Below the pieces are notes generated by a model. It had not been told where the DNA came from and did no database searches. It was given only the letters and a program-made list of their open reading frames with translations. This document shows positions 15,387 to 56,880 of a stretch of 64,000 nt of DNA, piece by piece (positions within the stretch are counted from its first letter, which is position 1; each line of letters opens with the position of its first letter). Source of the DNA: Eukaryota sp. GEM-RC1 (taxonomy: Eukaryota); contig JAUFOQ010000004.1 of NCBI GenBank assembly GCA_040285855.1, positions 1,302,001 through 1,366,000 of the forward strand. Direction: 5' to 3'. Both the position numbers and the translations under genes were made by a program.

Positions 15387-16087
15387 TTACCATTGATATA
15401 ATCCCATATTAGGTACTGGAGAACTTCTTCCAATGCTTAAAATCTTTAAACTTCTCCAAAACCGAACCCTACTTAAGGTCACATAAAGCTGCGCATATTC
15501 CCAGAACTGAATAGCAACTTCAATCCCGTCAATTGTGAAACCCTGGGATCGATGGACTGTTATCGCCCAGCAAGGTCTTAGCGGAAACTGAATTCTTTTT
15601 GCCACTTGAAAAGGTCTTCCGAAATTTGACTGATAGATTCTTTTTGGTTCTGCTTCAGCGTTGAACCGTACATCAATATATGTGACTGAAAAATTAACAA
15701 TAACTCCTTTTGAACCATTAACTAGTCCAAGTTCTGGTTTGTTTTGAGTTTACATCACTTGTCCTCCAACAACACAGTCAAGTTTTTTTCCGGCAACATC
15801 TTCCAATCGATTTGACAGTACAGAAGTTTCAAAAAAACTAGAAAATCTCTAAAACAAATCACTTGAAATCCTCCAAATGGTTTCTTCGGAGTGTGACATT
15901 TTGGCGTCTGCATAAGCTCACTCAAAATGTCACTCGTCCGTTGGAACAAATTGGAGGATATCAATTGAAATTTCATCACTGCACCAGAGAGCTTGTAGAA
16001 GATATGATTTTCCAGATCCTGCTCCACCAGTGACAAAGAAGTTGTGTCTGCTGGTAGTGATTGCGTTAAAGATCTCACGTTGGTCAT
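15387..16087 (-). pseudogene. PIF1: Degenerate PIF1-family helicase fragment (possibly Helitron-derived)
   Basis: KPFGGFQVICFRDFL (cf. PFGGxQxIxxGDFxQL). NKPELGLVNGSKGVIVNF read at ~15690-15745. RIQFPLRPCWAITVHRSQGFTID...QLYVTLSRVR (PIF1 C-terminal motifs). Walker A and Rep domain not seen. Confidence 0.8.
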
Positions 16088-16626
16088 CTGTGAGATTGAT
16101 GTTGTGTATAGTGCTTGGTGCTATTGAGTTGATGGATTGTTTTAACGCAAGGAAACTTGGTCTTCATCAAAATTCTCTTTCACTTCACAACCTGACTTTA
16201 TGCCGTAGTTTGAGTTTTTTCAATTTATCCCGCAATTATATTGGCCGAATCTTTGAAGATACGGATCCATTTCTTGTTTCTCAGTTTGACTCTTATAGGT
16301 TGACTTTACACGTTATAAAACATAGACAATATCCAATATTTATACTTACTTCCTTCGTTCAGATCCTGGATGATTGTTTCACGAGATGTTTGATAGATAC
16401 GAGATGTGTTTGGCAAGATGTTCTTTATTTATACTATACTACTTAGTTCGTCCAGATCCTAGCTGAATGTTTCACAAGATGCTTGATAGATACATGATGT
16501 TTGACAGAGACAAGATGTGTAACACAAAATGTGTTGGTCAAGACATGTAATACAAGATGTGTAATACAAGATCTATAGCAATATTTTAAATATTGCTGGG
16601 TTGTAGGGTTGTTAAAAGGTCACATG

Positions 16627-18756
16627 TAGGGATGGTAATGGATTGGTTTGGTTTGGTTTTGGTTCTCAAAATTTGAACCAAACCAACCCAGAACCACACA
16701 CGTCTAAACCACACCAAACCAGCACCATAGACGTCTGAACAAAACCAGAACCACGAACCATATGGTTCTATGTATTTGTATCAATAGTATTGTGTTTACT
16801 TGGAATAATACAATACACATCTTTCTTACATGTCTGATATACAATATCTTTCGGAGAGGAACCTGAACCCCAACCTGAAGCTAAACACCAACTTGAACCC
16901 CAACCTGAAGCTCGTTTAACTTCTCCAACGAAGTCCATCGTGTGGAACTACTTCTCGAAAGATGATAGCAAGGCAAGATGTTCTTTATGTCTCCCTATCA
17001 TCACTGAGTACACTCATTCCAAATCCTCCGGAACTTCTACTTTAAAGAAGCACTTGGATAGATGCCATTCTGGCTGGGATACAGGTACTGCTCTTCCTTG
17101 CAAACAAACTATTCTCAACTTTAACGTCCGTGAGGCGTCATCTCTTTCATCATCTTCTTTGTCAGTCTCAAAACAAAATGAACTGGAGGAACTTCTTTTG
17201 ACCTGGGTCAGAGAAGAATGCCAGAGCTATAGTTCGTTGCAGGCGAAGTCGTTTGTCGCAATTTTGAACTTCTTTAATTCAACTGTAACTGGTGTGGAGC
17301 GACACGATGTGTAAGAAAAATTTTTTTAACCAAGTATAACAGCGCCATTGCGAGTTTCAAAGTGTGTTTTGACACCATCAACTCAAAGATTTCACTAACA
17401 ACGGATCTTTGGACATCCACTGCAGGTGTTCCTTTTATTGGTGTTACAGCACACTATCTTGCTGATGACTTCACTTTTCACAATGTGACTTTGGATACTC
17501 TCCAATTACCTCATCCTCATAATGGTGAGCAAATTGCTGACGCCATTTATGAACTTCTTGAAAAGTTTGATTTGACTCAAAAGATTATGTCTATTACACA
17601 TGACAATGCTACAAACGTCATTTCAGCTATTGCAATACTGAATGACAAATATCATCTACAAATTCAATCAAAGAGATGTGCTGCTCACATCTTAAATGTC
17701 ATTGTTTACAGTGCTTTTCCTCGTTTTCACAAACTATTGCAAAAAGTGAGATCTTTTGTAAATCATTATCGTCGGAGCAGTTTTACCTCTCAATTAATGA
17801 ACGAAATCGCAACCAATAACTATTTCCCAACTCCCACAAAGCTGCAAATTGATGTTGTCACGCGTTGGAATTCCACTTTCACCATGATTGAAGGTTATTT
17901 AAAAAACTTACAAGTTATTGACATGGCCATCTCGAGAATAGGTGGTAATGTGACAAAATACCGTCTATTCATGGAAAAAACTGAGTCTTTAAGACATCTT
18001 ATGAACTTTTTGAAGAAATTCAAGGAAGTAACTCAGGTGATTTCTGGAAGTACATATCCTACTTTAGCAGCAGCTGGAGTGTGTTTTGAAGATATTGAAG
18101 AGCACGTGGCCACGTACCATTTAAGTTCTCCCGAGGAAGAAACCGAATGGAGTAAGTGTATTGAGAGAGCCACTTTTTTTATGTGGGAGAAACTAATGAA
18201 GTAGAACCAACATCTGTCAATGATCCATTAGAGTGGTGGTGCTCATCTAGAAATCGTTTTCAGTGGCTTGCCAAAATTGCAAGGGACTTTCTTGCAATTC
18301 AAGCCATATTTGTCCCTTGTGAACAACTATTTTCTTTGGCTTGATGTACTGTGACCAAATTACGTAATCGATTAAGCCATGATAGTGTACAAGCCTTGAT
18401 GACTCTGCGATCTTGTCTCAAAAACAACATTAGATGATAGTTGATCTAATGTGAAATAGAAATAAATAAACTACTTAAAAAGAAATAAATAAATAAATAC
18501 GTAAATAACTACTTTAATATAGAGATATTAATAAAAATGAGGTTTCAAACACTTCTGTTCCTCGGTTCTTTAAGGGTGTTATGTAAGTAAACACAGACAT
18601 GCTGAAGTCATCATGGTTCTGGTTTGGTCCTGGTTTTTGCAGTTGGGACCAAACCAGAACCAAAACCATGATGGTTCCGGATTTTAGAACCAAACCAGAC
18701 CAAACCAATCCTATTTATTGGTTTAACCAGAACCATTGGTTTTTCTGCCATCCCTA
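16627..18756 (+). mobile_element. hAT (Ac-like) DNA transposon, 2,130 bp, internally deleted
   Basis: TIR TAGGGATGG / CCATCCCTA. 8-bp TSD gtcacatg (16619-16626) / gtcacagg (18757-18764), 1 mismatch. Dense AAACC/GGTTT subterminal repeats at both ends. Encodes hAT transposase remnants. Confidence 0.93.
16830..18437 (+). pseudogene. hAT transposase with BED zinc finger and C-terminal dimerization domain, disrupted
   Basis: BED finger VWNYF..ARCSLC..GTSTLKKHLDRCH; ISLTTDLWTS; ITHDNATN; RCAAHILN; TRWNST; DPLEWW..LAKIARDFLAIQA..PCEQLFS..LRNRL in another frame after 18200. Has frameshifts, an in-frame TGA, and lacks the segment between KLMK and the dimerization domain. Confidence 0.92.
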
Positions 18757-46083: not shown

Positions 46084-47149
46084 AAGTGAAGACAGAGATT
46101 GTAAACAACTGATGAATAAGGAACAACCTAATGTCGCTGAACAACGGCATTACGGTTCAAATGTGTGTGTATTGTGTACACCTCTAAGTGTTTGACCTCA
46201 ATCATATTTATTTAAATAATGCTATATTAGGCAATAAACATTGCACTTCCGAAACAGTCGAAAATGAATATTTTTTGCAATATTTATTTAAATATTGCAA
46301 TATAAATATTTATTAGTGCTCCCTGTTCTGACGTTCACTGAAGGTTTTTGGTTCAACTCCTTGGTTATAGTGACGTGACACTTTTAGTACAATTTCTAAA
46401 CTTTCTTTCTTTGTCACACTTTTCTGCGCCTTTTCGCATGACTTTGAAACTGAAAGACTGGAACACTTATTGAGTGCAGAAAAAACTGAGTCTTTGGAAG
46501 CTTTCAGAAGAGTTTCGTCAGTTCCTCCTGTTTCCCTCCACCGTCTGCTTTTTCCATGACATCTTCTTTAAAAGCATCACTAGGTGAACTCTTTTCCTCT
46601 TCTTCTGACTTTATTGATCTTAGTTTCATGCCCTCGACTCCAAAAATCATGTGAAAGACTTTTTTCTACTGACAAACGAGCCCTTGGCTTTCATAGGTTT
46701 GGATTGAATCCTACAAGCTTGGAAAAGTAACTTTTCATGAAGTCTAATCGAACTTGGTGGACTGAAGCTATTTTTAGGGATAATTTCATTGAAGATGGTG
46801 CTGGTCTCGAATAGGTTGTGATGGATTTGTTGTTTTTGTTTTTAGTATGGTGTGATTCCATAAAAATGTATATAACGATAAGTACAAAAGTATAGGTAAC
46901 GCATTTAGTCATCAAACTCAGAAAGAGTTGTGTCACAGAAATATTGTATATTGCAATAATTGCAAAATTTATTTAGTGGACAACTGTACTGTAATATGTA
47001 TTGTCTAGACTGAACCTATTTAAATATATATTGTTGGCCATGATATTTATTTAGATATTTTTTCCCAATCCCTGGGTCCAACGGCTTTAAAATACAAAAT
47101 TATTTATAGATGAAAGAGACATACATATCAAAATATAAGCTAATGAAAC

Positions 47150-47650
47150 TCTAGAAACCGGCAATTCATGGTCAACGCTACCACAATCACCTGCAAATTC
47201 GTGTTAATTGATTTAATACACTTAGGCATCGAACGGAACAGAGAGAAAATCAAACGGTTATGCCAAATTGATAAGTTAAATCTCTTATTCTGAGACTTTA
47301 ACATAGATCCAAAATTAGTTAAAAACTGAGAAGCCATTTCACAAATACAACAGAGAATAGAAATGCCAAATTACAAATTTTGAATATGACTTTTGATTGC
47401 GCTTAGCAACATCACTGGAATACAAATCAATTTTACGTTTTTGGTTGTTTCTAAGTAGATTAAACCTTTTGAAGTTACGCTGTTAACATAAGTTTGAGAA
47501 CATGGATCTAATGTTGTAACATCAAGGATAATTTGATTAGAATCATTAAAAGGACCATGTGAGTCACCTCGACGAGAATTGTAAATTAAATCAAGACCGA
47601 ACTTACTAAATATGGGTTCAACTGTGGTATGAAATCCATGATAATATTCT
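47150..47650 (-). mobile_element. Remnant of a non-LTR retrotransposon restriction-like endonuclease (RLE) domain
   Basis: Manual translation HGFHTTVEPIF...SRRGD...QIILDVTTLDPC...KRKIDLY...RFNLSIWHNRLIFSLFRSMP fits the E-P / R(P/G)D / DV / KxxKY / W..R layout of RLE PD-(D/E)xK domains and resembles 56400-56850. Confidence 0.6.
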
Positions 47651-48574
47651 TTAATGATTTTTATCTTTTATACTGTTCAAATTGAAGTTGCCTATATGTT
47701 GTTTAAGGAATAACCGTATCATCTGCGCGCTTCTTGGAAGCATTACTAAGTATCAAAGCTCCATTGTTTCTAAAATGTATAGAGGTCACTCTGTTGTTAA
47801 TGTGAACAATTTGACTTCTTACATTTTCAGCATTAGTAAATATTAAATAAATGCTTGGACATATACAGACTTAACATTAAAACAAAAACTTAAGTATCAA
47901 ACCTAAAATCGTCCTTTAGAATTATTCCTTTTGTTATATCAATACTTGATACTATTGTTGCTGCTGAGGATTTCGGTGATGCGTTTCCCAATTGTGTCGT
48001 AATCAAAGTAAATTTTTCGATCCAAATCTTTGACACAATCGCATATTTTTTCGTTATAAACAAATTTTGCAAGGTAGTTCTCTACTATCGTATACTGAGT
48101 ATGTATCGTGATCCAAGCGTAGATGTAAAGCACTGTTTATATGCAAAACACCAGTAGAGCAGAAAACAACAAAGAGTCACAAAGTTCGTTCAACAATAGT
48201 TTTATGGACGAGCATGTTATATTATTTTGGTCACGTGTTTGTTAATTAATACATGTATAATGTACAACAAGTTATCTGACACAAAGTGACATGTCTAATT
48301 GACGCGAACGAATTGTGAAAAATTATAAGAGTTGAATGTAGCACCAGTACTTGTACCGGAATGAAAAATTCCAATGTAGCCCACTGATGTCTTATATCAA
48401 TGCATGTTCTGAGCTTTTTGAAGAAACATTAGAGTTTATTAAGAGAACCAATAAAAGCATACCCTCTACTATGCTTGTATTAGGACCTTGCTTGTATTAG
48501 GACCTCGACGATAATACAAAAGGTCATCATAATCTACATGTAACATTCTTGAAGGACATATATACGTTCTGAAT

Positions 48575-49034
48575 CAGGGCCTAGAAAAATTGAATTGCCA
48601 ATACAATTATTTCAATACATTGGTATGAAACATTGATTGGCGCCAATTTAGAACATTGAAACATTGACTGGCTCAACATAAATCATCGAAACATTGATTG
48701 ATATAATATTCAAAAATTGCAACATTGGCCAATTATATTTTGCGAATTATCCTATTTCACTCAACACTGGAAATCACAATACCAATATGCAGCTGATGTA
48801 GATAGTCGTTTTAACATGTTCTTTATGAACAAAAACATAACTTGTATGATTTGGCTGTTCTACTACTAGTAGTAGTGGTACTTGAAACATGGGACCAATA
48901 TCAAACATTCAAGCATCGTTTCGACCAATATCTAACATTCAAACACTGATTGGTTTCATTTGAAACATTGAAATATTGATTGGTTCAATTTGAGACACTG
49001 ACATTGGCAATCAATTCAATTTTTCCAGGCCCTG
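48575..49034. mobile_element. 460-bp MITE with hAT-like CAGGG termini
   Basis: 23-bp TIR CAGGGCCT(A/G)GAAAAATTGAATTG with 1 mismatch; many internal GAAACATTGA/CAATA repeats. No 8-bp TSD recognisable. Confidence 0.8.
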
Positions 49035-49126
49035 AAAAGGACCTTTTTAGATTCCAGGTACTGAATGATCCCCAAGACAAGACTTTTTCTTCAAAATTTC
49101 TTCACTATCTCCTTTATCTCTTTTTA

Positions 49127-49414
49127 ATGCAATCAACCGGTCTACCTGGAGGATCCATTTCCCGTAATCACGATGAACCCGATGTTAAAGAAGCTGTTGA
49201 GTTCGCCATGGAACATCTAAATCTCATGTCAAATAGTCTGAATCCTCACATTTTGGATTCAGTTGTTGACGCTTCTTCCCAAGTCGTTGCTGGTACTAAC
49301 TACCACCTTACATTAAAAACTACAAGAGGAACCGCATCTGAATGTCACAAGTTTCAGGTTTTCAAGTCTCTTACTGGCGCAATGGAGCTTACCAACCATC
49401 AGGTTGTTTTCTAG
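49127..49414 (+). CDS. Cystatin (papain-family cysteine protease inhibitor), 95 aa
   Basis: N-terminal PGG, helix DVKEAVEFAMEHLN and the canonical QVVAGTNY loop. ATG at 49127. Confidence 0.9.
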   Translation: MQSTGLPGGSISRNHDEPDVKEAVEFAMEHLNLMSNSLNPHILDSVVDASSQVVAGTNYHLTLKTTRGTASECHKFQVFKSLTGAMELTNHQVVF

Positions 49415-49979: not shown

Positions 49980-50303
49980 CTAGTCTTTCCATTCTTTACA
50001 TTGGCTACTTGAACCTACTTCCTTGCAGCAGATCTCCTTTTCACATTCTAAATGTGAGCTTTTCTCATATTCTTTAGGACGTGCAATCTTTTCCTTTTGA
50101 ACTGGTTCGCATACTACTTCCTCCTGTTGAACTTTTGTACGATGAACTGGTTCGCATACTGTTCTGCACACTATCTCTGGTTCACAAGGAACACATACGG
50201 GTCGTTCTCTTGGTTTGCAGTCGGGATCAGCTGTTTGTGATAGATGAGCGTCTTCTCTTCTCTCACTGCGAGTTCTGTCAACAATATCTCGGCGTTCAGA
50301 CAT
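49980..50303 (-). CDS. Small Cys/Glu/Pro/Val-rich protein with VCEPV-type repeats
   Basis: 107-aa ATG-initiated ORF with VCVPCEPE, VCEPVH, VCEPVQ; AATAAA ~15 nt after the stop. Confidence 0.6.
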   Translation of the reverse strand: MSERRDIVDRTRSERREDAHLSQTADPDCKPRERPVCVPCEPEIVCRTVCEPVHRTKVQQEEVVCEPVQKEKIARPKEYEKSSHLECEKEICCKEVGSSSQCKEWKD

Positions 50304-50344
50304 TTTGGTGTAGTTTAGATTGTTTTTTCGTCAATAATATCTAG

Positions 50345-50470
50345 CAGGTATCTCTTTGTCTTCAAAAACATATCTTTTTCCAATAACTTCTGGAATGAAT
50401 GTGAATCCGAAGATTCAATAATGCTACAGAGTCACTGTAGTAAATAAAGGCTATGACTATGACTATGACA
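50345..50470 (-). ncRNA. Candidate Fanzor omegaRNA scaffold / element right end
   Basis: Directly 3' of the Fanzor stop, three consecutive hairpins on the minus strand: CTACAG-tgact-CTGTAG (50440-50424), TGAATC-TTCG-GATTCA (50417-50402, cUUCGg tetraloop) and TTCCA-N8-TGGAA (50395-50378). Position matches Fanzor/TnpB guide RNAs; boundaries are estimates. Confidence 0.55.
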
Positions 50471-52600
50471 AATAACTGGGTCTAACTCCTAGACCCCGCT
50501 CCAAATGATGCTCCACAATGGTCTTGATGTTGATACATGCTAACTTGTTACGATTCCAAATCTTGGCGCTACCATGACATTCTTCTCTACATTCTTGGGA
50601 CTTGCATCTCAACAAAGCGTGACACTTTACCAGAGGTTTCTTCTCTCTTTTCCATGGTTTTGGATTACTGATTTCTTTGAACACTTTGACTGGCTTCCAA
50701 CAAGTAGGACACTTTGAAGACGTGTAACTCTCATCTACGAGAACAAGGTTGTAACCATTTCTCTTAAAGAAGTTTCTCCAACCCACACCTCTACTTGATC
50801 GGAGATGTTTTAGGTTCTGCCTTTTATTACCATTGTCACCAAACATCAATACACTGTCATTTTTATTCCATCCTTTTGCAGTCATATTTTTCGACAACTT
50901 ACTTTCTGTTTTTTGAATATGGACGTATCTTTGCATTTTTGAATGCGCCATATCATCAAACAGTAGTAATCAAATGTTGATTCAATAACTGTAAGTTTGG
51001 AACCCATATAGTCATAGAATGTGTCATAAAGAGTGGACTTCGAATTTTCTTTCGACAATGTTGACTCTTCTTGTTCAACTGTTTTTCCATCTTGGAGAAT
51101 GAATTCTTTTTTCTTTCCCCTTCTAAACTTTTGATGGACCCTTGACCATCTGGACCATTCTGTCTCTGTCAATCTTAGCCACTCGTATTCTTTGTCTCTT
51201 CTTTCTCGTGCTTTTTGTTCAGGAAATGGCCTATTTACTTTCTCTGAACAAAAATAGAGTAAATCTGTTTTTCCAGGATCAATAAAAACCTTTGTTTTCA
51301 ATGAAAACTCTTCAACATCATAGTCTTGAACATATTCTTCTTTACTGGAGAACTTTGCACTGTCTGGTTTAAAGGACATTCCCACACAGTCCTCTCTGGT
51401 AAGTTCAACACAAGCAGAGAAACCATCAGTTTTAATGGTATTGTTAAACTTATAACCTTTCTTTATAAATGGACGATTAAAGTTGAAAAATGGGACCACA
51501 ATTGATTTTGTTCAGCAGGAGACATGTGTGCAATTTCATTCTTTGTATTCCAATCAGACATTTTCTTCTTGACATTCACTTGTTGTGTTGACAAAGTGGA
51601 ACGTAATATTCGCCAAAGACCTTGTGTGTCTATTTCAAAAAGCCTGGTGTGACGTGACGAACAATCGGAATTACATTGTAAGCACTTGCACCTTCACTTT
51701 CAAGATAGTTATTTATTTGAATCGCAGATTTAATAAAGGATTGAGGATGTTCACGAACTGATTTAAGTAGAGATTTAACGACTTTCTTTTTATAAACACC
51801 ATTAGCATTTTGAATATCAATTGATGGTGGGAAGAGAACATCAATAAAATATTTATCTCTAAACAATCCTTCAACATAGTCGTTAGTTGCCCACAGAAGT
51901 TTAATTTTACCTGCAATGTTCAAACTTCTATTACTGTCGTCTTGAAGAATTTCTGTATTTCATCTTTGAATAAATTGTTTTATTTCTACAGTTGTTTTTG
52001 GAACGTCATTTCTGTTACCTTCGAGAAAGACATTTGTAACTTGTCTAAGTCTCCAACGAAAAACAGACTGTTCTTTTTTTGACATTTTCTCTTCTTGATC
52101 AGTCTTTTGAAAATAAACATTAATAAATTTGTCAATGTATTGAGCATAACGCATTTTAATATTGGTGTCCAAATTTGTTTTGATAGTTTCACCAACCATT
52201 GCCATAATTCGTGAGGAACGAGCAGCTGGAAAGAGTGTAAATCCTCCATTGTTGAGCATTACTTGTTTGTATTCCTCTAAAACAAAGTTTTTCAACTGTT
52301 CATTAAATGTAGGAGGTCGTCCTTGAGGTAATTCAATCTCATGATGTTCAGCAGAGATGTATCTTAACAGAGTTTGAATATGTTCTACTTCTTTTCTTGT
52401 AATTAAAGGTAATTTTTCACCATTCTTATCCATGTGTAATAAAAACAGCTTCAAACAATAGGAAGTGTGCATTCCAAGTTTGTGAACTAATGGAGCATAA
52501 TAATCGAGTAATAACGTTAATCCAAAATGTTTGACAATAGACTTTGGTGTAGTTTTATGTGTTACAAAAGTTGGACGAACGATTTTATTTGATTGAAACA
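50463..52600 (-). pseudogene. Fanzor1: Fanzor1 (eukaryotic TnpB-family RNA-guided RuvC nuclease) domain
   Basis: N-terminal THKTTPKSI..HTSYCLKLFLLH..LPLI..IKTNLDTNIKMRY; YKFNNTIKTDGFS; RuvC-I FIDPG; FGD then rearranged RuvC-II VDESYTSSKCPTC; zinc finger CPTC...C.SQEC; RuvC-III WNRNKLACINI; terminal RPSYL. Three homopolymer frameshifts and one in-frame TGA (51960-51962). Confidence 0.93.
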
Positions 52601-53330
52601 ATAAAAACAACTTCAATGCTATTACACTATCTTTGAAGCAATAGTTTACAACTTCTTGAGGTCTTTCATCAACACAATCAATAGGCAATAAGTGGTGAAA
52701 TTCGTCATGAAGACGTCCTTTAGATTCGTTTAATAAAAACCAACTTAATGACCTTAAAGACTTTGAACATTTTGAAACAATAAATTGCTTAGCATAAACG
52801 TATGAATCACAGACAATTCTACCAGCCCATTAAGAACAAACATTTTGCCATAGAGATGATAAATGAGATTTAGTTGTTTCATCTAGCATTGGTTCTGGAA
52901 AGTCGACTCCAAGTGTAACAATCCTTTTGCCTAAAACAACATTAACGAAGTCAGTTATGTTAAATCCAGTTAAAACTGATGGATTTTTATCATTCAAATA
53001 GTTGACAAAAACTCTAGTAACTGTTTTTCGTCTTCAAAAAATCGAAGGTTTCTACAATCAGGTGGCAGTTCAACATCAGATTCATGAGTCAACTCTAAAG
53101 TTGCAACAAAATTGTCTTGAAGGAAAAATTGATCTTTTATAAAATGACCAAACACTCCAGAAATCATAAATACTTGTTGGTTTTGAATCCACAGTTCTCT
53201 TTCTGCATCACTTTTCATTTTGAGAGATCCATTCTCGTTCTTTCTTTGATCATCCAACTCCTCTGTAAGTGTTTCTGCAGGGATTTGATCAATTTCTCTA
53301 GTTTCAATATCAAAAGACAATATTGAACAA
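52600..53330 (-). pseudogene. Family-B DNA polymerase 3'-5' (DEDDy) exonuclease domain, in frame with Fanzor
   Basis: ExoI ILSFDIET; FEDEKQLLEF; ExoII-like NPSVLTGFNITDF; GRIVCDSY; SLRSLSWFLLNESK; ExoIII NYCFKDSVIALKLF, which sits in the same uninterrupted ORF (51960..52688) as the Fanzor N-terminus. No polymerase palm motifs follow. Confidence 0.85.
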
Positions 53331-53984
53331 TGATTAGAGTTATTTGGTAATTGGGAATGTTTGAGAAACTCAATCATTGGTTTTTTAGGAGGTTTCAAAC
53401 TCTTTGTCGCATTTGATACTCCACTTGCTTTTGGTTTGGTGGTTTTGCTTTTGGCAACTGTTGTCTTTCTATTACCTGTTGCTGCTGTTGTTTCAGTGGT
53501 GTCAGATGACTCAATTGTTTCTGTTGTTTCTGTTGTATCTGTTGTATCAGGTTTCTCACAAGCAGCAACATTTATTTTTGGAGTTGGTAAATGTATTTCT
53601 GGAAGATCTGTTAACTCTGGACGACTAAAGTTTTGATAACTTTCTTGAAATAATTCTTCAGCTTCTTCCAGCGCTTGTTCAATCATTTTTAACTTCAAAA
53701 GACGTTTCTTTTCCGGTTAGATAAATTTCCAGGTAAACTTTTGAGAAAGTTTTGATAAGTGAGCTTTGACACCGTTTCCTTGTAACTACTATCATCTACC
53801 ATTGTTTCAGGAGTTAAACTTTCATATTCTGCTGTTAGAGTTGTACACTGCACAGGTTGCTTAACAGGTGATTCAATCTCATCAGAATAAAACTCATTTA
53901 ACATACCTTGGGCATGAGTACATACATATTGTCGGTATTCATCAGGGTGATCTTCATCAGGGTGAGTAGTAACGATTTGAGACG

Positions 53985-54620
53985 GTATTTGTTTTCTCAT
54001 TTCTAATGCATTATAAACAACACAATTAGAGACTTTAGACAGAATTTCGAAAAGATTTGTTGATGTTGATTCACACTCGACAATTTAATTCATATACAGT
54101 AGAATAAATAGACCACAGTCATTGAGAGTTTGGACTTGTTGAACTGGTACTCTAGCTATGTAGCTGAAATTTGCCATATCAAACAGGAATTGCTGTAATT
54201 GTGAAATGACGGTGTCAATACGTGATAAAGTGTTAGAAAACTGAGAATTTTGATCTTCTGTGCACATTGAGTCAATAGAGAAGTATTGTTTGTTTTCAAT
54301 ATCACAGATTAACAGTGACCAGTGAGTGGCTGTTGTACCAAAGAGACCGTCATGTATTGGAAGTCACAAGAAACGTTTCTTACACTTTTTAGTGTGTCCT
54401 TTACTGTACTTTTCCATTGATAATTGAACCTCTCTAAATTGTTCAAACATTCTGTTTTATTGTGAAAGATTGATTGCATCTTGAATGTTGGCTACTTCAA
54501 AGAACTCGCATCGATTACTGTTTTCAACAATGTACTGACCAAAAAAGTCAATGACAGAATCATGAAGTAGTACATTTGGTTTCAGTGAGTCAATTTGATC
54601 AGATCTAAGAATATGAGGTC
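53985..54620 (-). pseudogene. Ulp1/SENP (peptidase C48, clan CE) cysteine protease domain at the N-terminal part of the Fanzor polyprotein
   Basis: One frame reads LRSDQIDSLKPNVLLHDSVIDFFGQYI...LPIHDGLFGTTATHWSLLICDIENKQYFSIDSM...PVQQVQTLNDCGLFILLY...LEMRKQI, giving His-Asp-Cys triad motifs. In-frame stops at 54457, 54364 and 54085. Confidence 0.85.
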
Positions 54621-55504
54621 TAGGACGAGATTGTGTTAGAATTCCACGATATTGATGTTGAATAAATTGATATTTTTGAGAAAATTTCTTTTTTTTGGAG
54701 GATATTTTCTAGATTGACGAGTTTTTCTTGTCCGATTTGAGTCCATAAGTTGATTGCGAGTAGTCAATGGCACCTGTCGAGTTTCATCAGGAGATGAAAT
54801 TACTGTTGAATGTTCGTATATTTCAGAAGTACCAGCAGATCTATTTATTTGTTGTTGAGAAGGGGTTAAATGAACTACAGTACTGTGTTCTTGAACACGT
54901 GCTTGAATGTTGTTTGAAAAGTACTCATGTACAATACTTAAAGCAAGTATAGCAAAAGGCGTAGGATGAGTAGTTCCTATTAGATTTAGCACTTGTTTTC
55001 TCATGTCAAAAGCATCATAATCGACATAATTTTGGACTTGAGACATAATTTCCTGGAAATTGTCTGATGTTGATGCCAAATGAACAAATCGTTATCTTAA
55101 CTTATTCCAATTCGTTCAACCATAAATACTCAATGAACTTTTTTCTTCAATAATCAATCTAGATTTGAGACAACACATTTTAATTCACATTACACATTAT
55201 ATTATTGAGAGTTTGCCAACTTCCATCAATTTCATTTCATTTAGAAACGAAACGTAAGTTTAGAATGGCTGAATGGAAAAACCGTATAGTGTTTTCCATA
55301 TATCGGAATATGCCTTTCTATTTCTCCGATTAATTGAGAAATTGTACAAGTTTGGTGTGACGGTTGATGTTGAAAAACGTAATCCTTTACCGGGTGGTGA
55401 TGAAGTCGTTTGGATTTAATCTTAGTACTGTTTGTTTGTTTTTGCAATTTCATAGTTTTGTAGGAAGGTTACCTTATTGGGTACCGAATAAAGTATATTG
55501 TATT

Positions 55505-55856
55505 TCATTTACATTTACAAAACACAAATCTCAGATCCTCATCTAAAAAACGGGGTTTATGATCAGTCAGTGAAATAAATGCATTTGCAGAAGTTGATAA
55601 CTGACAGACACTAACTAAAGTATCTAAACTATGATCCTTCTGTCCATCACCGAACAACTTACCTAAAATTGAATTAAAATATCTGTGCATTGAACGACAC
55701 AACGCAAACGTTAACCTACGCAACCAAAAATTTTCATTGAAAACTTTACCGCACTCAGAACACTATTTACCAAAGGAAGTTAATAAACCTCGTGCAGCTG
55801 GTCCAATATTACATCGCAAACGGTTGAAGCACAAAAGAATTGTACCTATCAACATT
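55505..55856 (-). mobile_element. Short remnant of an RLE retroelement C-terminus
   Basis: IGPAARGLLTSFGK*CSECGKVFNENFWLRRLTFALCRSM resembles the G.LG..A...L....FW..R.S.AL tail of RLE domains. Confidence 0.4.
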
Positions 55857-55899
55857 CAATTGGTTAATTAAGTGACAGTACTTTGTATTTTTTCCTTTT

Positions 55900-56880
55900 T
55901 CAGCCACTTCAAGAGCAGAAAAATCATCATCAAATTTTTTTGGAAATTGATCCTCATCTTGGTGGTATTGGTTGTACTTCATCTAAATGGTATGGTGGTA
56001 AGAATTTTGTCTTTGAGTTCTATAGACGATACCCGAGTGAAAACACTCTTCTTGTTTCTACAAGTAGCTTTTTCTTGGAAAATTTGAGATTGTAAAATTC
56101 GACTTGGCCTGGCCAAAGAAAACAATCTAGCGTTCTCAATTTGTTTAATCGATTTGAAGGAGAAGTTCCTCAGTTGATTTGATTAACCAAATTCCACAGA
56201 TTTATGGTTTGTTGTTGAATGATCATCGATGGAATACAATATTTAGATTTCGATGTTTCTTGTTACCTAAGGATCTTGAATGTCAATGTGGTAAATTAGT
56301 TATTTTTCCTCACATTTTGAGTTGTAACCGTTTCATTGCATATCGAACTTGCATTCATGATGTTGTCAGAGATCAAATTCATAAGTGCTACAAATTCGAA
56401 TCTTTTGTTGAGCCACTGTTGAGATAACCTGAGATCAATAATTTAAAAAATAGTGATTCTGATAGGACTTTTGGTAAAAAAGAGCTGATGTCAACGTTCC
56501 ATCACTCAATGATGAAATGACGGTTGCTGATGTGATTACTGTGGATGTTTGCAAACAAAAGTGTATCTAAAAATGTAAACAATGAAGTGTCTTCCCTTAA
56601 TTTTTCAGAACAATTTAAGAGAAACAAATACGAAGCTCCTTTGACTGCTCTCAAACATACTAGACGTGTTTAATACAAATTCTGTCATTTTGCAATTTCA
56701 ATTTATGGTCGACTTGGTATAGATGTTCTTTGTCTTCTCTATGATTTTGAGACAGTTGTCAAAAAAAGGATGAACAAGAAATTTGAGTTTGACTTTTGGT
56801 GGAATTGTACTGTATTTACAATAATTAAAACAATTCCTATTATGATTTTGAAAGTTCTATTAGATGTCAGTATTTTCAAT
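55900..56880 (+). mobile_element. Degenerate 3' part of an RLE-type (CRE/R2-like) non-LTR retrotransposon
   Basis: CQCG..PHILSC..RTCIHDVVRDQI (CCHC knuckle plus RHD-like motif), ESFVEPLL, RADV..VADVITVDVC, EQFKRNKYE, FAISIYGRLG, FDFWWN. Many stops and frameshifts; no RT core visible. Confidence 0.7.

Follow-up and report, generated by a model that had tools for sequence, protein, structure and literature searches.

Why would an RNA-guided nuclease carry at its front the proofreading domain of a DNA polymerase, without the polymerase? This question is raised by a broken gene on the minus strand of a 64,000-nt stretch of the GEM-RC1 assembly (the whole of this stretch being referred to here as the window), in which three-frame translation of 50200-55200 reveals first Ulp1-type protease pieces, then a linker of low complexity and, behind it, a DEDDy exonuclease that is followed by a Fanzor (Table 1). 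An earlier note on this DNA had proposed that the exonuclease runs from ExoI to ExoIII, has no polymerase domain and is followed directly by the Fanzor, which both motifs and profiles confirm: the exonuclease profile of the family spans 53335 to 52596, the Fanzor profile begins at 52580 and no polymerase domain was found downstream of the exonuclease in the window. The junction needs no intron since both profile edges sit in a single stop-free frame (52829-51960), which contains the last helix of the exonuclease and the start of the Fanzor. The piece at 51963-52829 matches SpuFz1 (E 1.6e-5). Taken alone, the pieces of the window have no Pfam exonuclease match, and the ExoI piece has no meaningful PDB match; record P0004, which is 97% identical to the window, matches PF03104 (E 3.7e-14). 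A weak match to the exonuclease end at 16461-16601 was checked as a possible second exonuclease and rejected, none being present in the window.

Table 1. Parts of the exonuclease-Fanzor element in the window (positions are those of the window).
Feature	Position	Strand	Evidence
Ulp1-type repeat 1 tail and spacer	54681..55091	-	tblastn with P0057 aa 221-357 (84%) and P0020 aa 61-197 (88%)
Second Ulp1 (C48) protease domain	54085..54633	-	PF02902 E 3.2e-8; motifs
Lys/Ser/Thr-rich linker with basic, NLS-like stretches	53336..54084	-	basic runs; 5% invariant columns across four families
Family-B DEDDy 3'-5' exonuclease domain	52593..53335	-	profile, motifs, PDB and fold matches
Fanzor1 nuclease (WED/REC/RuvC/TNB)	50463..52580	-	SpuFz1/PpFz1 profile E ~1e-30; Foldseek top five
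Putative omega-RNA or right-end region, two short hairpins (weak support, boundary approximate)	50385..50500	-	folding z-scores

The copy in the window is a ruin. Its 5' end is missing past 55091, where P0057 has a 2A-like motif and a first Ulp1 core, and what is left aligns with family proteins in seven tblastn segments, that is, with six frame changes, and contains five in-frame stops, one of them within the exonuclease. The latter is interrupted by a frame change near 53010 and by a TAA at 52830-32, the second Ulp1 repeat retains its His (54322-24) and Cys (54115-17) and has three in-frame stops, and the Fanzor part has one stop and three frame changes. Some of these breaks may be assembly errors, because neighbouring host-like genes are also fragmented. 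The element also has a 125-nt internal repeat (53959/54963), and the basic stretches of its linker may, from their composition, serve as NLS. A (GTCATA)3 repeat at 50450-50470 (-) overlaps the Fanzor stop codon.

The catalytic residues of the exonuclease can nevertheless be located to the codon in this broken gene: Asp 53309-11 and Glu 53303-05 in ExoI, Tyr 52641-43 and Asp 52629-31 in ExoIII, all of which are intact, as first noticed. The ExoII Asp was said to read Val, and it does: the motif is G-F-N-x-x-x-F-V, in which the Val is a GTT at 52944-46. This change is private to the window copy since 32 of 33 other records read Asp at this position and the remaining one Asn. The family thus follows the DEDDy pattern (ExoI DxE, ExoII NxxxFD, ExoIII YxxxD), from which the window copy departs at the ExoII Asp. 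The ExoI Glu is found in 34 of 35 records (the search pattern required the Asp), and the Tyr..Asp pair of ExoIII in every one of the 28 records that extend this far. Had the catalytic residues been unconserved, the case for a functional domain would have been weak, but the D and E of ExoI, F-D of ExoII and D of ExoIII are invariant in eight of eight diverged representatives, in which most columns vary. Across four families, identity is 31-49% in the exonuclease (20% invariant columns), 23-50% in WED/REC (13%), 35-61% in RuvC/TNB (26%) and 17-38% in the linker (5%). Judged from these alignments, the exonuclease is as conserved between the four families, at the protein level, as the Fanzor body to which it is attached.

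That the fusion might be unique to one copy can be discarded, owing to its recurrence in protein records. A query spanning the junction retrieved five clusters among 1033 candidates, with 26 member records (NCBI proteins, from GEM-RC1 and TZLM3-RCL), and a Fanzor-only query (five of 4973 candidates) brought in TZLM1-RC as a third label (29% identity), whose full records P0035 and P0038 again have the exonuclease ahead of the Fanzor. We take these three labels to belong to the free-living metamonad genus Skoliomonas. Similar strain names appear in what is accessible of PMC11316075. Within the 75 records of the element family, many of which are fragments, the exonuclease profile is found in 40, the Fanzor profile in 44 and both in 27. 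The gap between the two is 5-8 residues in 25 of these 27 two-domain records, while the other two skip internal sequence. Fanzor N-termini without an exonuclease number zero in these 75 records, although exonuclease-free Fanzors may be under-sampled in these genomes because most queries contained the exonuclease. The 39 exonuclease segments fall into 14 clusters at 70% identity, nine of which combine the two domains within a single record, while the remaining five are short fragments. In addition, no PF00136 polymerase domain is present in the element records scanned by Pfam. As far as these protein records go, the fusion is therefore a trait of a multi-copy mobile-element family, not a single capture.

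How far does this family extend? A profile of the Ulp1-linker-exonuclease part, run against 1.84 billion representatives, gave 371 matches at E<=0.001 (21 at E<=1e-10). Among the best 150 of these 371, the top 20 are pieces of the element or of the 2A/Ulp1 module and the twenty-first is an archaeal PolB, and nine of the ten clusters looked up by name belong to the same three labels. The search and these look-ups together gave 158 proteins, 73 of them with polymerase motifs, and none of these 73 matches the Fanzor profile, so that, within these searches (again for the best 150 of 371 matches), the fusion appears to be confined to one lineage of anaerobic protists, in three assemblies. Two pattern scans of viral contigs (146 and 55 matches) produced no confirmed relative, a phage collection had no match, and a metagenome scan had at least 596 matches, those listed coming down to 28 loci, with a Fanzor match in none of the 28 and a polymerase motif in the ORFs of 16. 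A protein atlas returned generic PF03104 clusters only and no usable match for P0035.

Some records depart from the common plan. P0016, a record from a second family, carries a helicase of DEAH type (PF00270, PF00271) ahead of its exonuclease-Fanzor part; this helicase is either captured cargo or a gene-model fusion. P0048 and P0198 have a Ser-rich 5' stretch that is common to different exonuclease-Fanzor families, and P0048 pairs the Ulp1 of one family with another exonuclease, which, together with the shared stretch, suggests module swapping.

The origin of the exonuclease can be narrowed to a type of polymerase, no further. The model obtained with AlphaFold from a 43-row alignment has a block of residues 1-240 with pLDDT 70-95 (overall mean pLDDT 61.6 and pTM 0.37, against a pLDDT of 32.9 from the single sequence), and leaves the relative placement of exonuclease and Fanzor undefined. 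The predicted RNase H-like fold superposes on PolB exonucleases with Z 18-19.6 and rmsd 2.2-3.3 A over ~170-190 residues, a range of Z that hardly separates Pol alpha, epsilon, delta, ASFV, Pol II and archaeal enzymes from one another. By sequence, the best PDB match is Pol delta (E 1e-6), followed by Pol alpha (3e-3) and archaeal enzymes (1e-2), while protein-primed polymerases are absent among the 48 PDB matches, which agrees with the suggestion of an RNA-primed rather than protein-primed type. PF03175 gave one weak, sub-cut-off match among 48 PolBs scanned. GRIVCD (52806-23), which had been offered as a clue to the donor, is not supported as one, being specific to the window's own family. 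For phylogeny, 91 of 134 candidates were kept by requiring all three motifs, a filter that dropped Pol alpha, and no protein-primed polymerase was retrieved or is present in the tree. The fused exonucleases form a single clade, both in a quick tree of 99 rows (SH-aLRT 99) and in a 42-row subset from which the long row P0048 was removed (100/99). This clade sits on a long branch, and the best tree puts it outside a 98/92 Pol delta clade and weakly beside one divergent PolB (68/88). AU tests reject neither a Pol delta grouping (p 0.114) nor an archaeal one (p 0.093). This phylogeny has thus delivered one clade but no donor: a single origin of the fused exonucleases is likely and, on sequence and fold similarity, the donor is probably a PolB of RNA-primed type, with no narrower placement. 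Compared with the proofreading domain of RNA-primed PolB (Pol delta 3iay, alpha, epsilon, archaeal and large-virus enzymes), that of the family has the same DEDDy ExoI-III motifs and the same predicted fold but lacks the N-terminal, palm, fingers and thumb domains, and has its own insert and long-branch clade.

The other half of the fusion is closer to Fanzor1 than to Fanzor2/TnpB and has an enlarged REC, as judged by profile and Foldseek matches rather than by a Fanzor tree. SpuFz1 and PpFz1 are its only profile matches (E ~1e-30) and also the top five Foldseek matches, while PF07282 is a weak match in the window (E 5e-4), below the cut-off. The TnpB-like RuvC motif D...TS..C4...R[DN] is found in the window and in the family, with the C4 zinc finger. 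RuvC residues in the window are Asp 51278-80, a relocated Glu 50730-32 and Asn 50547-49. The RuvC-II Glu sits six residues before the zinc finger and a Gly occupies the canonical site (GDNG and DESYTSSKC in the window), which holds in four families. At the third RuvC position, nearly all copies have Asn and one record has Asp. That this Asn marks a dead nuclease was considered and rejected, since GtFz1, which has the same D-E-N triad, is reported to cut, and D606N raised the activity of SpuFz1, in the accessible part of PMC11423790. The Fanzor1 of the family is therefore, going by its residues, plausibly active. With SpuFz1, PpFz1 (8gkh, 9cf0) and GtFz1 it shares the WED/REC/RuvC/TNB body and the relocated RuvC-II Glu, its D-E-N being as in GtFz1, and to these it adds an N-terminal PolB exonuclease of ~245 residues and upstream Ulp1 and 2A-like modules.

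These upstream modules are less regular than the pair that they precede. A motif of the type DLTxDGD(V/I)ExNPGP, exact or variant, is present in many families, including the window's own (P0057), where it belongs to the 5' part that the truncated window copy has lost. Most families have it ahead of Ulp1, P0038 has it behind, and wherever a record shows the motif, it precedes the exonuclease. GD(V/I)ExNPGP is described as a 2A signature of non-LTR retrotransposons, and occurs near the N-terminus of L1Tc, Ingi and CR1/Crack, although the motif alone is said to be insufficient for skipping, upstream context being needed (as far as PMC3708506 could be consulted). Ulp1 is likewise carried as cargo by Ginger transposons, according to the part of PMC2836005 that was available. 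Unlike Ginger and the 2A-bearing retrotransposons, the element has no reverse transcriptase or integrase in any of its records scanned by Pfam. The number of Ulp1 copies varies (once, twice or none), with His and Cys motifs intact in family records, while the exonuclease-Fanzor pair is constant. When compared by eye, 53935-53970 (-) in the window, just after the second Ulp1, corresponds to the 2A-like motif that P0038 has at this position, and it may be a decayed 2A.

As for the ends of the element, neither TIR nor TSD was found around the 5'-truncated window copy. In the candidate right-end region, the hairpins of which lie past the Fanzor stop codon, 50395-50445 has a folding z of -3.24 (three of 200 shuffles as good), which is the best of four segments tried, the others having z between -1.1 and -2.3; Rfam gave no match for it, its four matches being at chance level.

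The surroundings are rich in other repeats. Two decayed remnants (55270-56750 (+), a short way from where the Fanzor element breaks off at its 5' end, and 46900-48200 (-)) match each other weakly (tblastx E 9e-6) and have no Pfam match; we take their zinc knuckle and endonuclease-like stretch to be features of an RLE-type non-LTR retrotransposon. A decayed hAT-like transposase with a BED finger (16838-18700 (+), PF02892 E 2e-8) is adjoined by a broken helicase with a Walker A motif (15400-16150 (-)), the motifs of which are presumably PIF1/Helitron-like. A MITE-like sequence (48574-49035) has 24-bp inverted repeats, 96% identical, around 414 nt, and internal 30-bp repeats. A cystatin gene (49130-49414 (+), PF00031 E 1e-10) is found downstream of the Fanzor element. 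In 1-45000 there are four or more large copies, in direct and inverted orientation and spaced by ~10.7 kb, of a long, fragmented, membrane-protein-like gene family, the repeats of which are presumably RCC1-like.

What, then, could the exonuclease do? The reading that we favour, with a probability of about 45%, is that it would remove a non-homologous 3' tail of 16-17 nt on the TAM side of the break, letting repair recopy the element. In other Fanzor1s the TAM marks the insertion junction, and for SpuFz1 cleavage is reported to follow base 16-17 on the non-target strand and base 20-21 on the target strand (PMC10432273, consulted in part). The RNA-guided Fanzor would thus cut the empty site, the non-target strand 16-17 nt past the TAM; in a donor copy these 16-17 nt should lie beyond the element and would therefore form a non-homologous 3' tail, which would keep repair from being completed until it is taken off. 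An exonuclease that works 3'-5' on single strands and is tethered to the nuclease could remove this tail, and repair would then copy the element back into the empty site. Such restorative homing, in which OMEGA nucleases cut excised alleles and recombination restores the element, is described in the portion of PMC13565253 available to us, according to which an element gains from it only if it excises; a transposase was found neither within the element nor next to it, nor in family records, and this counts against the tail-trimming role. What is accessible of PMC9477423 cuts both ways: in yeast, the proofreading activity of Pol delta degrades invading 3' ends over as much as ~40 nt and is able to excise non-homologous tails, a precedent, but host Pol delta or Rad1-type flap nucleases are then already able to remove such tails, which puts the need for a private enzyme in doubt and also counts against this role. 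A further parallel is the homing of T4 group I introns, the efficiency of which is affected by the gp43 exonuclease and by DexA: there too, a PolB 3'-5' exonuclease acts on homing-endonuclease breaks, but the T4 exonucleases are separate phage replication proteins that are not fused to the endonuclease (PMC2988022, in the part seen). More tentatively, the exonuclease-Fanzor pair might be a natural OMEGA effector with two nucleases, in which the Fanzor cuts and the proofreading domain trims the displaced strand exactly to the insertion junction, the element directing its own homology repair; the polyprotein from which it is made would shed the SUMO-type protease by 2A skipping. The upstream 2A-like motif would separate the other modules and keep exonuclease and Fanzor in one chain.

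By analogy with TREX2-Cas9, the domain could instead destroy ends, eroding both 3' ends so that religation is blocked and deletions arise in empty sites, rival elements or viruses, as the earlier note's comparison with engineered fusions also implied. The catalytic residues are all kept in family representatives, and TREX2-SpCas9 gave higher editing and larger deletions (PMC13370227, as far as available); we consider it rather unlikely nonetheless, since TREX1, TREX2 and T5 fusions all impaired editing by MmeFz2, a Fanzor2 (PMC12923547, in part), and since deleting an empty site would bring a selfish element no gain in copies. The domain might also be a helper that works independently of the guide, processing transposition intermediates or donor-site ends and merely sharing the polyprotein, much as DEDDh nucleases are accessory genes in P and piggyBac elements (PMC3627910) and DnaQ-like domains occur in LTR polyproteins (PMC6338049), both as described in the accessible parts of these papers. 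This is unlikely in view of a junction fixed at 5-8 residues, without flexible linker, and of a 2A-like motif seen only upstream of the exonuclease.

That the exonuclease matures the guide, shortening the omega-RNA to guide length by removing its 3' read-through, seems more doubtful still. DEDDy folds include RNases too, which speaks for it, and a family-specific helical insert of ~40 residues after ExoI could, in the predicted model, bind RNA. Fanzor guide transcripts do run into variable flank, at least in the part of PMC13565253 that was read, but the sequence and fold neighbours listed for the domain are DNA polymerase domains, and other Fanzors mature their guides without such a domain, yeast-expressed RNPs being active (PMC10432273, in part). 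Finally, a neutral passenger or gene-model artefact, that is, a decaying chance capture, is very improbable and already largely refuted, for while the window copy is broken and has Val in ExoII, and many records are fragmentary, four carboxylates are invariant at ~30% identity across three assemblies, the junction lies in one open frame of the window DNA and the fused exonucleases form a single clade at 100/99.

The closest engineered systems are TREX2-SpCas9 and TREX/T5-MmeFz2, with which the family shares a guided endonuclease tethered to an exonuclease. The difference is that the family's fusion is natural, conserved and built on a polymerase proofreading domain, whereas the engineered Fanzor2 fusions lowered activity (PMC12923547, in part). 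None of the titles and abstract openings listed in the literature searches describes a natural Fanzor-exonuclease fusion. 'Exonuclease' does not occur as a word in the main text, as available, of PMC11423790, 10.1101/2023.08.09.552727, PMC10530073, PMC3627910 and PMC13565253, and a term search of the accessible supplements of PMC10530073 and PMC10432273 gave no PolB or Ulp1 entry, the instances of 'exo' that were checked (two of four) being 'exon'. This is a conserved Fanzor1 architecture that is, going by the literature searched, apparently undescribed.

It is not settled what Fanzors do for the eukaryotic elements that carry them, and the homing model has difficulty in accounting for the fate of the ends once the cut has been made. 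In this family, a putative end-processing enzyme, natural and conserved, shares a chain with the guided nuclease, which makes homing and end destruction directly testable against one another by comparing an exonuclease-dead element with the wild type. Since engineered exonuclease fusions lowered Fanzor2 activity (PMC12923547, in part), the natural docking of the two domains would show which geometry evolution has kept. Here, moreover, selection appears to have kept a proofreading domain in the absence of its polymerase.
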